IMG/VR virus record: IMGVR_UViG_2645727901_000008
DNA length: 64,000 nt
DNA from: a virus
Lineage: Duplodnaviria > Heunggongvirae > Uroviricota > Caudoviricetes
Reading direction: 5' to 3' (one strand)
Part shown: one piece after another, positions 3,856-40,853 of the stretch
Layout: each line of letters begins with the position of its first letter
How positions within the stretch are numbered: position 1 is the first letter of the stretch
The notes under the pieces: model-generated
The model's database searches: none
Seen by the model: only the letters and a program-made list of their open reading frames with translations
What the model was told of the DNA's origin: nothing
Translations under genes and position numbers: made by a program

Positions 3856-4623
3856 TCACCCCATAGATATCGAGGTTTCGGTAATAATACGTTTTGCGTC
3901 CAACTCCCATGCTGTGATCACGTCTGCAATCACACTTATCGGCGCTTGTGTGGCATAAATACGCTCTTCTCCAATTGGTGCCGAAACATCCGTAAATCCG
4001 ACTTCTTTGGCATCCTGTATCGAGCAAATCAGCGGGACCGGGACACGAACAAGGTGAGTGGTTGCTTCAAATTGTGTACCTGTCATCAGGCGAAGCCGTG
4101 CGCCCAGCGAATTACACATCAGACTCATGGTCGCTTTATCAGTTGACATTAACGTAACGTCATACGTCAGAATGGCCTGGGTGTATTCCAGTTCTGCTAA
4201 AGGCATTCCGGTATCCGGTTCGCAAAAACTGGCTACTTTTTTGCGGTCAATCTGCTGATCATCGTTGATATAATTGATATCCATAGTGCGTGAGATATTG
4301 ACCAGGGGGAGAGCATCCCGGTTAATGTTCTGGTTTTCAGGTTTTCTCCCTTGCCCGGCATTTGCGCGACGAACTGCTTTAAGAAACTCGATCGCATTGT
4401 CGAAACGGGCCACATAGACACGCTCTGCTGGTGGACGATTCAGGAATGACGCAAAGCGTTTTTCTTCCGGCGCGGGGGCCACCAGTAAGATATCAGAAAA
4501 GATATTGCTGATTAGCGTAGCAAACGCGTTATCCACGTTTTCAAAGCCCGTGGTCTGGAATTTCCCTGTGCGTGAGGTTTGCCATTCACCTGTTCGCGCC
4601 AGGAGGGTTTTATTTGAAGTCAT
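3856..4623 (-). CDS. Hypothetical phage protein (255 aa)
   Basis: Long ORF in operon context; no motif recognised. Confidence 0.45.
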   Translation of the reverse strand: MTSNKTLLARTGEWQTSRTGKFQTTGFENVDNAFATLISNIFSDILLVAPAPEEKRFASFLNRPPAERVYVARFDNAIEFLKAVRRANAGQGRKPENQNINRDALPLVNISRTMDINYINDDQQIDRKKVASFCEPDTGMPLAELEYTQAILTYDVTLMSTDKATMSLMCNSLGARLRLMTGTQFEATTHLVRVPVPLICSIQDAKEVGFTDVSAPIGEERIYATQAPISVIADVITAWELDAKRIITETSISMG

Positions 4624-38577: not shown

Positions 38578-38823
38578 GACGTATTTATTAGGTTGCGGTG
38601 CCTGGTGCCTCCAGGTGACGTTAACCAGTTAACAATTAACGCCGGGATTTTTGTCTTCACAATTAAGGAGGATTGTTTTAACTGTTCCGCGTGCGCTTAG
38701 CCGCATTCACCGCAATGGTAAGAGCACTTGGCTGGCTGGGCGGCGATGACGCCTGTACGCATTTGGTGAACCGGTTCTGCTTCCGGCATTCGCTTAATTA
38801 GCCAAATACTCTTAACGTTGCAC

Positions 38824-38910: not shown

Positions 38911-39045
38911 CGTTATTGTGGCGACCGGTGCTGATCTCCGGCTTGCGGTTATTTCAGACTCTCACGGGCGTTTAATTGCCCCGCCGAACAGCTCTTTTCC
39001 GCAATAGCTGCAATGTCTTTCGCGCATCAGCCTGCGCATTCACCA

Positions 39046-39135
39046 CAATGTTGAGAACACTGGTTGTCACGCTGCAACGCAACATTTATTCGTAGATTGG
39101 GATATGACCCCGTTACGCCAGTGTTCTCAACGTTG
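39046..39135. repeat. 18-bp inverted repeat CAATGTTGAGAACACTGG ... CCAGTGTTCTCAACGTTG flanking about 54 bp
   Basis: Read from sequence; one mismatch between arms. Confidence 0.55.
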
Positions 39136-39283
39136 TAGTGCCGGTTACGGTTCCGGCCAGGCCTCTTCCTCAACGGGTTGTTCTCCATACGGACTACCGT
39201 TTATTGGTCGTTCCTGCGGTTTATGTTGTGAAGCCAGATGCTTATCTTCTGGTTGCTTCAAAGAGCTGCACTTCATCACAACG

Positions 39284-39356
39284 GTAAGGGTACTTCGTAG
39301 GGATTCGAACCCTCTGCCAAGCACGGCGATCTCCGACGTCGCAAAATACCCTTACC
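39284..39356 (-). other. tRNA-like element with T-arm (GGGTTCGAATCCC) and 10-bp closing stem but no canonical anticodon arm; possible tRNA pseudogene
   Basis: Folded by eye; T-loop present, cloverleaf incomplete. Confidence 0.25.
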
Positions 39357-39364
39357 TGTTGCGT

Positions 39365-39440
39365 TGGTGCCGATTAACGGGATCGAACCGCTGACCATTC
39401 GCTTACAAAGCGACTGCTCTACCAACTGAGCTAAACCGGC
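39365..39440 (-). tRNA. tRNA-Thr (anticodon UGU)
   Basis: Reverse complement GCCGGTTTAGCTCAGTTGGTAGAGC...CTTTGTAAG...GGTTCGATCC...CGGCACCA. Confidence 0.85.
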
Positions 39441-39444
39441 AATT

Positions 39445-39531
39445 TGGTGGGGAGTGATGGAGTCGAACCACCCGAGTCGCAATGACAGTAGATTTACAGT
39501 CTACCCCGCTACCCCTACGGACTAACTCCCC
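39445..39531 (-). tRNA. tRNA-Tyr-like (anticodon GUA, class II long variable arm)
   Basis: Acceptor GGGGAGT/ACTCCCC, anticodon stem-loop GTAGA-CTGTAAA-TCTAC, T-loop TTCGACT, encoded CCA. Confidence 0.6.
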
Positions 39532-39536
39532 TAAAG

Positions 39537-39612
39537 TGGCGATGGTGGGTGGATTCGAACCACCGACCGACAGCTTAGAAGGCTGCTGCTCTATCCTACT
39601 GAGCTACACCAT
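39537..39612 (-). tRNA. tRNA-Arg (anticodon UCU)
   Basis: Reverse complement GATGGTGTAGCTCAGTAGGATAGAGC...CTTCTAA...GGTTCGAATCC...CACCATCGCCA. Confidence 0.85.
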
Positions 39613-40853
39613 CACTTGCCGGGTACGTCTCCGGCGAGGGCTTCCACCTCCGTATGCTTTTCGGCGCACCGCGCCCTGGCTGCAATTCAGTAACAGGGGA
39701 TGCATAACCCTGGCTTCCAGCGTGATTAGCGCCTTCAGCATGACGGGATATACCCGTAACCAACAAACTTTCCCATATACCATCAAACAATGGCTGTTAC
39801 GCGGGAGGGACGTAACAGGTAAGGGCGCTGACCAGAAAGACCTGACCCTTCTCATTCATCTGGTTAATCACACCAGCGCCCTTGCCTGTTATGTCTCCCC
39901 GTTCCCTAATACACAGACGGGGACACTCTGCGGTCGATTTTTTGACGGGGGACGACTCATACCCCGTGGCGTCTGGCTTCTTAGGCCGCTACCATCATCA
40001 GATCATCGTTTGCATTTACTTTAATGGTCGGTTTCTAAACCGCCGCAAAGCCGCTAACCATGACGAAAACCCTAAAAAAGCCCACCCGAAGATGGGCAAA
40101 TACGCTACATCTCACACAAGAAAGAAGCCGACTGCCTGAGCTGGATTCACTTTCAAATGCCCGCAGAAAGGGAACACAAGTCGGCTTCTTTCTTGATGCG
40201 GCACTCTCTCCGCCCGTCACCGTTCTGTCTCGGTTGTCGCGTTTGCCACGCCAGCCGTAACGAGGTTTAAAGTCTTTGCACGTTTCCATCACTCGACTGC
40301 CGTCTGTGGCTGTTCGTTGCAGCGGGGGTGCCTCCCCCTGGGGATATCCCCGGCCTTACCCCATTCTTTCAAGACACAATGCAAGGCCGCATCCGCATAG
40401 GTGCATTACCGCAACATTAAGGAGACTTAGGGCAAAAGGTAATCGCCACAAAAAAAATCCCTATGCCTCCTTAATGTTGAGGATGTGCATTGATGATGAT
40501 TCGATGCGGCGAGTCCCGTTACTCTCTGCCGGACCATCATCAATGAACATCTTAAAAAGACCTTCCGTGGCTCAACATGTCTTGTCGTTTACTCCGTAAA
40601 GTGCTCTCTCTGAAACCACTTTACGCACTAAACCTGCTGAACTTTGGCTTGCTCGGTGCCAAAGCGAGTCCCTGTATGTATGTAATTTTCTAACACTTTA
40701 ATTTGTTATTTGCTGGTGGGCGAACAACAACCAATAAGTGACTATCAAGCCCAGCAAGCGAAATGTGGCAACGCTCCACCAGCAAGGAAAATTCTAAGTT
40801 AAGTTACTCTCACAATCAATACGTTCGTTTAGTGAAATTAGATTTCTAACATT
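39613..40853. other. About 1.2 kb without a convincing CDS; rich in long-loop inverted repeats
   Basis: Only short, overlapping ORFs in all frames; 13-bp inverted repeat CAACATTAAGGAG...CTCCTTAATGTTG around 40408-40478 and others. Confidence 0.4.

Follow-up and report, generated by a model that had tools for sequence, protein, structure and literature searches.

Two predicted RNA units, one of them tmRNA-like, in the leader of a tRNA operon of a D6-like phage-plasmid

The DNA analyzed here (IMG/VR record IMGVR_UViG_2645727901_000008), referred to as the window, is a stretch of 64,000 nucleotides, and sequence comparison showed that it comes from a D6-like phage-plasmid of the P1 family. We focused on positions 39613 to 40853, described in an initial annotation as a hairpin-rich stretch downstream of a tRNA cluster. 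ARAGORN placed all five tRNAs of the window on the minus strand, so the stretch lies upstream of the cluster and forms its 5′ leader; the minus-strand operon runs from this leader through the tRNAs and tciABC to the last tRNA. The part from 39613 to 40100 is 90.5% identical to P1 positions 68855 to 69348, which lie between the C1 operator Op72/Pban and tRNA-Asn. Judged from sequence, the whole stretch is the counterpart of the P1 ban operon leader. The description as hairpin-rich was well founded: the minus-strand RNA folded better than dinucleotide shuffles both at 40100-39614 (z = −3.43; none of 100 shuffles did as well) and at 40790-40075 (z = −5.43; none of 20), and every inverted repeat quoted at the time was found in the sequence.

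Alignment of related lineages revealed a mosaic region in which modules come and go. The P1 annotation suggests a DicF-like small RNA, which we rejected: the "dicF-like" module of about 100 nt, present in P1 and in lineages L003 to L006, is precisely missing from the window and from D6, and the Rfam DicF covariance model gave no match at E ≤ 1 in the window, nor at E ≤ 0.1 at the P1 locus. Some records annotate "hypothetical proteins" across the region. The absence of a convincing ORF, claimed earlier for all frames, holds for long ORFs. Plus-strand ORFs of 180 and 107 aa and minus-strand ORFs of 83 to 85 aa cross tRNAs, the terminator or indel-rich segments and are unconserved; L005 and L006 no longer have the 33-codon ATG frame at 40552, and a GTG frame inside a hairpin accumulates non-synonymous changes. 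The claim fails for two short minus-strand frames, namely a 31-codon ORF (40451-40356) that is conserved with synonymous changes and a start-less tag frame of 10 codons (40013-39984) with coding-type variation.

The 5′ end of the leader carries operator-like sites. The window contains 12 copies of the core TTTCTAACA where 0.65 would be expected; they lie within an asymmetric operator-like consensus of 17 nt, TGTTAGAAAWYTAATTT, and some copies form near-palindromic pairs. The two TTTCTAACA sites previously noted at the right end of the stretch are indeed present, but they start at 40687 and 40843, not at 40679 and 40845. O1 (40835-40851, TGTTAGAAATCTAATTT on the minus strand) directly follows the stop codon of the pmgS-like gene and is kept in six of six D6-like lineages in the alignment. 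O2 (40679-40695, minus strand, TGTTAGAAAATTACATA) has a degenerate 3′ half, and its core TGTTAGAAA is invariant in the six lineages. These two copies flank a sigma-70 promoter-like site found by consensus scan (40791-40819, minus strand, TTGATT-17-TAGAAT). Both hexamers and both 17-mers are conserved across lineages while the flanks vary, and we infer that the site probably works as a promoter.

The 17-mers resemble the P1 C1 operators in being asymmetric and 17 nt long, in having many dispersed copies, some of them in overlapping inverted pairs, and in their orthologous positions, which parallel Op72, Op83 and Op86 of P1. Both kinds of site share an AT-rich TAATTT end, whereas the 5′ half differs (TGTTAGAAA in the window, ATTGCTCTA in P1). 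The P1-type operator sequence itself was rejected, as no site in the window lies within three mismatches of the P1 C1 consensus ATTGCTCTAATAAATTT. A late promoter was rejected as well, since the −22 box of the P1 late promoter (TAGTCATTT) is unrelated to TTTCTAACA. From these consensus matches, the 17-mers are putatively a D6-specific variant of the C1 operator and supply candidate operator sequences for the D6 repressor.

Several structured elements follow on the minus strand. By alignment and minimum free energy folding, the hairpin at 40710-40785 (UGCUGGUGG/CCACCAGCA) combines an invariant stem with a loop of variable sequence and length. A long hairpin at 40388-40503 contains the CAACATTAAGGAG/CTCCTTAATGTTG pair of the initial annotation within 45-nt arms (40388-40432 with 40459-40503) and sequesters a Shine-Dalgarno-like sequence, UAAGGAGG (40466-40473). 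Lineages L003 and L004 show compensatory changes in it: G-C replaces A-U in the outer stem, and the inner stem has two double changes. This locked sequence is the only strong one of its kind upstream of the candidate 31-codon ORF (40356-40451), a TTG-started, hydrophobic frame (MWRLPFALSLLNVAVMHLCGCGLALCLERMG) to which the spacing is long, about 11 to 14 nt. All three differences from D6 are synonymous, as are the three differences in the part common with L003, where the frame is kept despite a replaced N-terminus. The ORF was found by tblastn in about 110 D6-like plasmids and is annotated in none of them; the peptide of 31 aa matched no Pfam or NCBIfam family. Positions 40200-40560 have no copy in E. 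coli chromosomes, all 101 matching places being on plasmids.

Further along lies a module of about 110 to 124 nt (40205-40314, minus strand), which is missing from L005 and L006 and also occurs in a Pantoea plasmid, upstream of an unannotated gene of the size of tciA. The segment 40105-40325 had one short partial match (57 nt) outside D6 in the phage collection. A perfect 17-bp hairpin with a 45-nt loop (40117-40195, minus strand) accounts for another repeat quoted earlier, AAGCCGACT/AGTCGGCTT, with arms at 40117-40133 and 40179-40195; the arms differ in L003 to L006, and pairing is retained. A terminator scan then identified GCCCAUC-UUCG-GGUGGGC followed by U6 at 40075-40097 on the minus strand. 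The homology of P1, D6 and L003 to L006 starts exactly at this terminator-like element, the 5′ border of the segment in common with P1, and SSU5-like elements have a hairpin of another sequence at the same position.

We propose that these features make up a first unit, from about 40820 to 40075, which would start at the promoter-like site. As this site is bracketed by two D6-type operator-like 17-mers, the unit would probably be silent in the lysogen and switched on after loss of the repressor. Its RNA would be about 700 nt long and highly structured, carry the hydrophobic 31-codon ORF and end at the UUCG hairpin and U-run.

Beyond the terminator-like element, a module of about 460 to 480 nt is nearly invariant in P1, D6 and the four other lineages (L003 to L006). 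It is far better conserved than the adjacent protein genes, tciA having no detectable DNA-level similarity, and no long conserved ORF is compatible with its indels of 1 to 2 nt. Its first 170 nt form the tmRNA-like core (39898-40067, minus strand). From 5′ to 3′, the core consists of a UUUUCG motif, a helix with an inner hairpin, a GCA resume-type codon (40013-40011) that begins the 10-codon tag ANDDLMMVAA (40013-39984), a UAA stop in a hairpin loop (39983-39981), and two pseudoknots, PK2 (39967-39933) and PK3 (39932-39896). No in-frame ATG, GTG or TTG precedes the tag frame, and an in-frame UAG lies eight codons upstream. The helix 5′ of the resume codon, CUUUG/CAAAG, is compensated to UUAUG/CAUAA in N4-like phages; it encloses a hairpin and ends 5 to 6 nt before the resume codon, a nested arrangement at the position of PK1. 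Both pseudoknots hold, with compensatory changes, in all six P1-type members.

Repeat search and folds placed a long hairpin directly 3′ of the core (copy 1, 39815-39889, minus strand, ACAGGCAAGGGCGCUG ... CAGCGCCCUUACCUGU), and T1-like phages also have a homologous hairpin after the core. The rest of the module (39614-39814, minus strand; alignment and fold) is a chain of short hairpins reaching up to tRNA-Arg, with a variable patch at about 39760-39800. With the terminator-like hairpin immediately 5′ of the core and no predicted promoter between them, expression of the core would depend on read-through or processing.

To see how far the core extends, we searched other phages. BLAST found it in about 680 phage records from at least five unrelated phage groups, P1 itself included, and also in virulent, non-plasmid phages of the T1-, Vi1-, FelixO1- and N4-like types; a 29-mer scan of GTDB representative genomes gave three loci only. 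A covariance model, R1, was made without P1-type sequences from ten members, eight from T1-, Vi1-, FelixO1-, N4- and SSU5-like phages or plasmids and two from unclassified viral contigs. R1 matched the window at 39898-40067 on the minus strand along its whole length (model positions 1 to 166 of 166; 71.6 bits, E = 2.4e-17), and scored 73.5 bits in P1 and 73.9 bits in D6. The proposed structure has 90.9% of cells paired, compared with 34 to 46% in slid controls, and 13 pairs with double changes, compared with 1 to 5; none of 500 shuffles reached such values. Covariation across relatives, which the initial annotation had named as a check, therefore supports the helices and both pseudoknots. A helix from RNAalifold that pairs UUUGCG with the resume codon region was discarded, being contradicted by uncompensated changes in N4-like and Vi1-like members. 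T1-like and FelixO1-like phages have consensus sigma-70 promoters directly before the element, so it is an RNA gene in its own right. We found no description of this phage RNA family in the literature and databases searched, and consider it new.

Three candidates had been offered for the stretch, and structured RNA is the only one that gained support, through the covarying helices and pseudoknots and the full-length match to the family model. Decay of protein-coding sequence, or neutral drift of pseudogenised tRNA or tmRNA genes, could account for the T-arm-like fragments and tRNA-like folds between the tRNAs, for the annotated "hypothetical proteins" and for the mosaic presence of modules. 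We consider it very unlikely, because about 480 nt stay nearly invariant where neighboring protein genes such as tciA have diverged, the small indels exclude a long conserved ORF, and the variation fits the RNA structure and the tag frame, as expected under purifying selection. A DNA-level site for replication origin, partition, incompatibility or recombination of the plasmid prophage would suit a non-coding, AT/GC-patchy, inverted-repeat-rich region with repressor-operator-like sites at one end. Yet the repeat search found neither iterons nor direct-repeat arrays, homologous cores reside in virulent non-plasmid phages, and the compensatory changes keep pairing, pseudoknots included, on one strand, which a DNA site does not require. 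In addition, an IS/TnpB insertion interrupts the core in at least one otherwise circular plasmid, so the core is dispensable for plasmid maintenance, which leaves a DNA-level site extremely improbable.

We then analyzed the tag frame. It comprises exactly 10 codons and a stop in 17 of 17 members, and these 17 sequences give 11 different peptides, all starting with AN(D/E) and ending in A, with the C-terminus VAA, MAA, AVA or MVA, not LAA. Variation is highest at the third codon position, followed by the first and the second. Synonymous third-position changes occur (GCA AAC GAU and GCU AAU GAU), and ANDDVVLMAA is encoded by four different nucleotide sequences. These patterns indicate that the frame is under peptide-level selection and decoded. 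They bear on the idea that the RNA is a decoy, an untranslated mimic of the mRNA-like and pseudoknot part of tmRNA that titrates a host factor or defence sensor (candidates are ribosomal protein S1 and RNase R). Such a decoy would agree with a tmRNA-like layout without a tRNA-like domain, and it has a precedent of opposite sense in mycobacteriophage DS6A, whose tag-less tmRNA-like RNA inhibits the host tmRNA (PMC11915505). However, a decoy has no need of an exact 10-codon frame, and the synonymous changes and four codings of one peptide point to decoding; we therefore regard it as improbable.

A related alternative is that the stretch acts in cis only, as a leader whose hairpins attenuate transcription of the tRNA-tci operon and mark its RNA for processing by RNase III/E/P; the tmRNA-like features would then be functionless leftovers. 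Its position 5′ of the tRNA operon, the terminator-like hairpin, the long near-perfect duplexes typical of RNase III sites and the recurrence of long hairpins before tRNA-like modules all agree with this. It is nevertheless unlikely in our view, given the peptide-level selection on the tag frame and the much better conservation of the module than of adjoining genes. Moreover, a consensus promoter of its own precedes the T1-like core, a terminator-like hairpin follows it (seen in Sa179lw), and ARAGORN found no standard tRNA at the T1-like core, but ZCKp20p has an annotated tRNA-Arg about 230 nt downstream.

We next compared the core with tmRNA models. The Rfam/Infernal scan suggested earlier did return a tmRNA match in the tag region, to tmRNA_permuted (RF04321), but at 23.6 bits (E = 0.0094) it falls below the gathering threshold of 47 bits, as does the SSU5-like copy at 39.6 bits (E = 1.6e-6). 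A 17-mer of the module matches genuine tmRNA genes exactly at their resume codons, and pairwise alignment of the core with E. coli ssrA was no better than with shuffled sequence. ARAGORN at default or -ps settings called no tmRNA in the window and detected the E. coli ssrA control. At an 80% threshold it did return "permuted tmRNA" calls with the right tags, which we discounted since they appeared alongside obvious false positives. A T-arm scan of 40900-38500 recovered only the T-arms of the four annotated tRNAs. A G2-U71 pair and a UUCG loop occur in the hairpin at 40097-40080, which lacks CCA; for the SSU5-like copy, searches for complementarity near its T-arm yielded weak cis tRNA-like candidates only. 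No tRNA-like domain in cis (acceptor stem with G3-U70, T-arm, CCA) was found at the core, so it is not a canonical tmRNA. Taken together, the core RNA looks like a member of a tmRNA-like family that keeps the tag-bearing half, a putative tag template missed by default ARAGORN and by the Rfam gathering thresholds.

Could a tRNA-like part lie elsewhere in the operon? Between the tRNAs, repeat search and folding found two more copies of the long hairpin on the minus strand. Copy 2 (39283-39356), between tRNA-Thr and copy 3, contains a T-arm-like GGGUUCGAAUCCC and has an ortholog in P1. Copy 3 (39041-39140) pairs 39041-39063 with 39118-39140 and corresponds to a repeat first described as an 18-bp inverted repeat flanking 54 bp; its location between tRNAs and the 54-nt distance were right, and the arms are in fact 23 nt long and 91% complementary. 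About 450 nt around it (39022-39470) are 94% identical to P1, where the copy 3 hairpin was recovered. There it underlies the annotated "plp" ORF on the opposite strand, which calls that annotation into question. The hairpin is one of several paralogous or homologous long RNA hairpins whose arms diverge while complementarity is kept. It had been likened to a mobile-element or recombination footprint, a notion we abandoned: its flanks, CCTGCGCATT and CCGGTTACGG, share no target-site duplication, P1 has the ortholog, and related arms diverge yet still pair. It is an RNA hairpin preceding a tRNA-like structure, not a mobile-element scar.

That structure (38920-39049, minus strand, predicted by folding) ends just before tRNA-Ser. 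Its acceptor-like stem is UGUGGUG/CGCCACA and its T-like arm GCCGG-AGAUCAGCA-CCGGU; a D-like arm and an enlarged central arm complete the fold. Neither ARAGORN nor Rfam calls it a tRNA. Of five T1-like phages examined, four have near-identical tRNA-like motifs 3′ of the core. In T1-like phages the tRNA-like RNA follows the core within one predicted transcription unit, and in P1/D6-type elements the two are separated by ordinary tRNAs. Phage genomes reported to lack tRNA and tmRNA genes can thus carry tRNA-like and tmRNA-like RNA genes.

Considering all these results, we put at roughly 60% the probability that 39613-40853 is the untranslated 5′ part of a minus-strand tRNA operon and comprises two RNA units, the second of them tmRNA-like. 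The second unit (about 40070 to 39614), presumably reached through read-through or processing, would belong to a widespread phage RNA family laid out like the mRNA-like half of tmRNA, and would, while the phage develops, provide host ribosome rescue (trans-translation) with a phage-encoded tag template. A source outside the core would contribute the tRNA-like function, one candidate being the unusual tRNA-like structures encoded nearby (39049-38920 here; immediately 3′ of the core in T1-like phages). The remaining hairpins, 39041-39140 among them, may be RNA structures of a polycistronic tRNA precursor, serving as leader or processing hairpins before tRNA-like modules. This offers a testable function for the long unexplained P1 ban operon leader.

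More tentatively, the core and the adjacent tRNA-like RNA might together be a functional, rearranged tmRNA system of enterobacterial phages with a new split or permuted topology, a possibility to which we give rather low odds. If true, proteins on ribosomes that stall during infection would receive the phage's own tag (ANDDLMMVAA and relatives), which could boost ribosome rescue, alter the fate of tagged proteins or replace a tmRNA inactivated by the host. Were the tag used, phages would be reprogramming both the rescue of ribosomes and the tagging of proteins; an unused tag would call for another explanation of the peptide-level conservation.

Among known systems, the P1 ban operon leader (Pban/Op72, "dicF-like region", tRNA-Asn, tRNA-Thr, tciABC, tRNA-Ile, ban) occupies the orthologous position. 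The two have about 480 nt in common at about 90% identity, the same order of tRNA and tci genes downstream, and a repressor operator at the 5′ end. Unlike P1, the window lacks the "dicF-like" module and the P1-type operator sequence and has about 750 nt of D6-specific leader including the small ORF; ban lies outside its operon, and its tRNA set is Arg-Tyr-Thr-Ser instead of Asn-Thr. The first unit also resembles type I toxin-antitoxin and small-membrane-protein loci of the hok/sok, tisB, dinQ and zorO type, with a short hydrophobic ORF containing several cysteines, a long structured 5′ UTR, and a hairpin-sequestered Shine-Dalgarno-like sequence whose opposite arm lies inside the coding sequence. 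It differs from them in that the ORF has no sequence similarity to known toxin families. No gene for an antisense RNA was found, nor did a consensus scan of 39613-40853, which cannot exclude one, reveal a promoter-like site on the plus strand.

The closest parallel to the second unit is tmRNA (SsrA; Rfam RF00023; two-piece or permuted forms RF01849-51 and RF04321), which is considered a housekeeping RNA of nearly all bacteria and for which some mycobacteriophages also carry complete genes. As in tmRNA, the core has an alanine resume codon without a start codon, preceded as in many genuine tmRNAs by (G/A)UAAAU, and its 10-residue tag ANDDLMMVAA is comparable to ANDENYALAA of E. coli, both with an AN(D/E) start and a final A. 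The stop codon of the family lies in or beside a hairpin loop supported by covariation, like helix 5 of tmRNA, and H-type pseudoknots follow 3′ of the tag; the 5′ motif UUUUCG(U/A)C..GCGAC resembles the tmRNA region GGAUUCGAC..GCGAAAC. There are also differences. The core has no acceptor stem, T-arm or CCA in cis, and the predicted promoters of T1-like and FelixO1-like phages put the RNA 5′ end at the UUUUCG motif, so that the RNA would lack the 5′ strand of an acceptor stem. The resume codon is preceded by a nested helix with a hairpin in place of a demonstrable pseudoknot, there are two pseudoknots versus three, and the family is encoded by phages and phage-plasmids, often within tRNA clusters.

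The DS6A form (PMC11915505) is likewise phage-borne, and each of the two has one functional half of tmRNA. DS6A keeps the tRNA-like half without a tag, whereas the family found here, whose hosts are Enterobacterales, keeps the tag-bearing half without a tRNA-like domain. The phage versions of tmRNA known so far comprise complete copies and a tag-less inhibitor, and in this family only the half that bears the tag is retained.

The non-coding stretch (39613-40853) had been placed downstream of the tRNA cluster. This is wrong: ARAGORN called five tRNAs in the window (Arg at 39537-39613, plus Tyr, Thr, Ser and Met), every one of them on the minus strand, so the stretch lies upstream of them in the direction of transcription. 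We read its features on the minus strand throughout. The 1.24-kb stretch was 94.6% identical to phage D6, where the orthologous stretch is flanked by a pmgS-like gene and tRNAs, and 97-99% identical to about 30 plasmids (~90 kb) of E. coli, Shigella and Salmonella. Its match to P1 and relatives was limited to the first 488 nt, at ~90% identity. In P1, these 488 nt have Op72, a C1 operator, and its promoter Pban on one side and tRNA-Asn on the other, so their position is that of the ban operon leader. In the alignment, P1 homology begins precisely at a terminator-like hairpin and is near-invariant up to the first tRNA (40070 to 39614); the neighbouring tciA, by contrast, had no detectable DNA similarity and pmgS only 71-85% identity.

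At the border of this module, the tRNA cassette (39365-39613) varies between near-identical flanks among the window, P1, D6 and four D6-like lineages (L003-L006): the window and L004 carry Arg(UCU)-Tyr-Thr and L005 has Arg-Thr, whereas the set is Asn-Thr for P1, D6, L003 and L006. These differing cassettes suggest cassette exchange. The D6 record (MF356679; L002 4296-5001) assigns tRNA-Ser, tRNA-Thr and tRNA-Asn to the plus strand; by ARAGORN all three are minus-strand genes and share the orientation of tciA and tciB. Just 3' of tRNA-Ser, 65 nt (38735-38799, minus) were 96.9% identical to phage lambda 44866-44930, in the late-operon region downstream of Q; rV5-like phages have tRNA-Ser and this adjoining segment in common with the window (~82%). 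Segment 38594-38714 (minus) matched the Salmonella sRNA family STnc100 below threshold, as did P1 (L001 4150-4269) and plasmid L003 (1215-1352), at 33-41 bits where the gathering score is 47. The copy stands directly 5' of tciA in the window and P1; plasmid L003 has no annotated tciA.

An 88-nt core is common to the window and SSU5-like Klebsiella phage-plasmids. When IMG/VR was scanned with the 17-mer AAAGTAAATGCAAACGA, P1-like and SSU5-like contigs were recovered together with dozens of genuine tmRNA genes, in which the resume codon lies within the 17-mer. The frame in the window reads GCA AAC GAU GAU CUG AUG AUG GUA GCG GCC UAA, which is ANDDLMMVAA plus a stop. The Rfam scan proposed in the initial annotation aligned tmRNA_permuted with the tag region, at a score (23.6 bits, E = 0.0094) below the gathering score of 47; the SSU5-like copy reached 39.6 bits (E = 1.6e-6), also short of 47.

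Exactly ten codons and a stop were present in 17/17 sequences examined, giving 11 peptides: ANDDLMMVAA, ANDNEFKVAA, ANDDVVLMAA, ANDNVVLMAA, ANDDLMLMAA, ANDDAVLMAA, ANDSEVLMAA, ANDNVFLAVA, ANEEAYLMVA, ANEEMYLAVA and ANDNTFLAVA. Pairwise differences numbered 457 at third, 282 at first and 190 at second codon positions. ANDDVVLMAA had four distinct nucleotide codings, and one phage used GCU AAU GAU where others had GCA AAC GAU. The other two frames were stop-rich. No in-frame start codon was found 5' of the tag; in the window and Sa179lw the frame is closed by a UAG eight codons before the tag, in wV8 by one about ten codons before it. These substitution patterns indicate that the tag frame is decoded and selected at the peptide level. 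A pure decoy RNA would leave such selection unexplained, and we consider it quite improbable.

We built the structure test and covariance model on ten non-P1 members. The proposed structure comprises a helix that encloses a hairpin and ends 5-6 nt 5' of the resume codon, a hairpin into which the final codons of the tag fold, the stop lying within or next to the loop, and two H-type pseudoknots. In this structure 90.9% of cells were paired, against 34-46% with slid partners, and double changes were seen in 13 pairs, compared with 1-5 after sliding; 0/500 shuffles reached the observed values. Both pseudoknots were present, with correct strand order and compensatory changes, in all six P1-type members (window, P1, L005, phiEa2809, Pylas and KKP3715), for example CGCAGA/UCUGUG against CAUGGA/UCCGUG, CGUGGA/UCCAUG and CGGAGU/ACUCUG. 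The model matched the window over its full length (39898-40067, minus; 71.6 bits, E = 2.4e-17), and E. coli ssrA weakly, in the tag region (12.4 bits). The suggestion of a structured ncRNA, to be checked by covariation, is supported, and both the conservation and the covariation contradict the alternative of decayed genes by neutral drift.

A tRNA-like domain in cis with the core was not found. ARAGORN, in default and -ps modes, called no tmRNA and recovered the E. coli ssrA control; a T-arm scan of 40900-38500 returned only those of annotated tRNAs; and the alignment of the core with ssrA was not significant. ARAGORN's 80% mode reported a 'permuted tmRNA' with the right tags, which was not counted because the same mode gives obvious false positives. 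The element thus falls outside canonical tmRNAs; it would work like a tmRNA's mRNA-like half, or descend from such a half.

Directly 3' of the core is a long hairpin (39889-39815), with paralogues at 39356-39283 and 39041-39140, all on the minus strand. The last had been described as an 18-bp repeat resembling a mobile-element or recombination footprint. The repeat is present, but its arms are 23 nt long and 91% complementary (39041-39063 with 39118-39140), and homologues in P1, a Pantoea plasmid, T1-like phages and phiEa2809 diverge in arm sequence yet stay complementary, so that by its pairing it is a long RNA hairpin rather than a footprint. It is followed by a predicted tRNA-like fold of ~130 nt (39049-38920, minus) in which UGUGGUG/CGCCACA forms an acceptor-like stem, accompanied by D-like and T-like arms (the latter with loop AGAUCAGCA) and by a central arm that is enlarged. 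This structure, a candidate for the tRNA-like role that the core lacks, shows no G3-U70, and no CCA is encoded. Nearly the same sequence lies 3' of the core in the T1-like phages ZCKp20p and ClaudiaMuster, with related versions in DS8 and Sa179lw; in Sa179lw, core and tRNA-like part together are enclosed by the promoter on one side and a terminator-like hairpin on the other.

Phage wV8 carries an uncalled tRNA-like sequence (L137, ~1064-1150) ~110 nt past the tag stop and ~45 nt past the core. Its acceptor stem CGGGGCG/CGCCUCG including G3-U70, T-arm GCGGG-UUCGAGU-CCUGC and encoded ACCA are features expected for a putative alanine-accepting domain. The sole annotated tRNA of ZCKp20p (L147 892-961), Arg(UCU)-type and not called by ARAGORN, lies directly 3' of the core and tRNA-like module; the tRNA-Arg(UCU) of the window likewise adjoins the conserved module. 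The P1 'plp' ORF (L001 4500-4877) occupies the opposite strand of the tRNA-like/hairpin region and overlaps tRNA-Thr. Its counterpart (39017-39396, plus) is antisense to two conserved RNA hairpins; the frame is open in the window, differs at 5/125 residues (12 nt) and is Cys-, Ser- and Gly-rich. The 'plp' annotation may be artefactual.

BLAST with the SSU5-like copy found the element in 680 phage records, most copies lacking annotation, among T1-like, Vi1-like (Ackermannviridae), FelixO1-like, N4-like (Schitoviridae) and P1-like phages. It adjoins tRNA genes in wV8 and FSL SP-058, and lies 3' of the major tail protein gene in T1-like phages. Consensus promoters precede it in T1-like and FelixO1-like phages (TTGACA-17-TAGATT, TTGACA-17-TATAGT), with predicted starts at or just 5' of the conserved (GAUAG)UUUUCG motif. 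A pure cis-acting leader would leave these promoters unexplained and seems doubtful. A replication origin or partition site acting as DNA, also proposed initially, is unlikely: the stretch has no iterons, the core occurs in virulent phages and, split by an IS, in a circular plasmid, and pseudoknot covariation is foreign to DNA sites. In that IncY plasmid (L010), an IS with a TnpB gene separates window positions 40034 and 40035 (segments 2501-2835 and 4165-4233). A viral contig (L033, ~2300-2500) is truncated in much the same way at its 5' side; both copies scored only 32 bits with the family model.

Minus-strand RNA folded better than dinucleotide shuffles both at 40100-39614 (z = -3.43) and in the D6-specific leader (40790-40075, z = -5.43). 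The inverted repeats quoted initially exist, as a perfect 17-bp pair (40117-40133 with 40179-40195) and 45-nt arms at CAACATTAAGGAG/CTCCTTAATGTTG. In a six-lineage alignment, this leader (~40820 to 40075) was a mosaic of modules. One hairpin has an invariant stem UGCUGGUGG/CCACCAGCA and a variable loop; another, CAACAUUAAGGAG...CUCCUUAAUGUUG, buries a perfect Shine-Dalgarno-like UAAGGAGG and changes in a compensatory manner in L003/L004 (outer stem A-U to G-C, inner stem two double changes). Just 3' of this Shine-Dalgarno-like sequence begins a candidate 31-codon ORF (40451-40356, minus; product MWRLPFALSLLNVAVMHLCGCGLALCLERMG), whose TTG start is provisional because of the long gap from the Shine-Dalgarno-like sequence. 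The view that the stretch holds no convincing ORF is right for long ORFs but needs amending for the minus strand, where this conserved candidate ORF and the tag frame are present. Differences were synonymous in 3/3 cases against D6 and in 3/3 against the common part of L003. The N-terminus is replaced, still hydrophobic, in L003 and L004; L003 keeps the frame through an identical stop, and in L004 one added G directly before the stop lengthens it. By tblastn, the ORF is present in ~110 D6-like plasmids and annotated in none; its product matched no protein family.

A further module of ~110-124 nt (40314-40205, minus) lacks a copy in two lineages and is present in the Pantoea plasmid, 5' of an unannotated tciA-sized gene. 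There, beyond a 113-nt copy (L007 3001-3113) come a long hairpin and a tRNA-like gene of 99 nt (2761-2859, minus; Rfam tRNA 45 bits, no ARAGORN call); no tmRNA-like core was found in this plasmid. The 'dicF-like' module of P1 is missing from the window. The leader unit ends in a terminator-like GCCCAUC-UUCG-GGUGGGC followed by U6.

The two TTTCTAACA half-sites reported at the right end are present, but start at 40687 and 40843, not 40679 and 40845. The window holds 12 copies against 0.65 expected, all sharing the asymmetric 17-nt consensus TGTTAGAAAWYTAATTT; the other ten are at 2176, 15558, 16216, 19552, 30479, 31879, 42094, 43137, 53044 and 54243. At 2176, 16216 and 19552, a second, inverted TGTTAGA lies ~14 nt away, resembling the bivalent C1 operators of P1. 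Between the 40687 and 40843 copies sits a promoter-like TTGATT-17-TAGAAT; both sites and both hexamers are kept in six lineages while the flanks vary. The P1 C1 operator ATTGCTCTAATAAATTT had no match anywhere in the window, and the P1 late-promoter box is unrelated to TTTCTAACA. The sites equal the C1 operator in length, asymmetry and AT-rich end, and P1 has C1 operators at orthologous places: Op72 (Pban), Op86a/b (before pmgR-pmgS) and Op83 (after pmgM), where the window has 40843 and 40687 in the leader, 42094 before pmgS and 43137 before a pmgM-like gene. On these grounds we infer that the sites are operators of a D6-type repressor, and the 12 copies together may define its regulon.

A full-text literature search on phage-encoded and tmRNA-like RNAs, with the D6 and P1 genome papers outside its reach, returned no description of the family. 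The genome paper of the T1-like (Drexlerviridae) phage KMI8, in which presence of the element was left unchecked here, detected no tmRNA gene. A 2025 tmRNA database paper (PMC11915505) lists phage tmRNAs only as complete forms and the tag-less DS6A form. Compared with the E. coli tmRNA tag ANDENYALAA, the window encodes ANDDLMMVAA.
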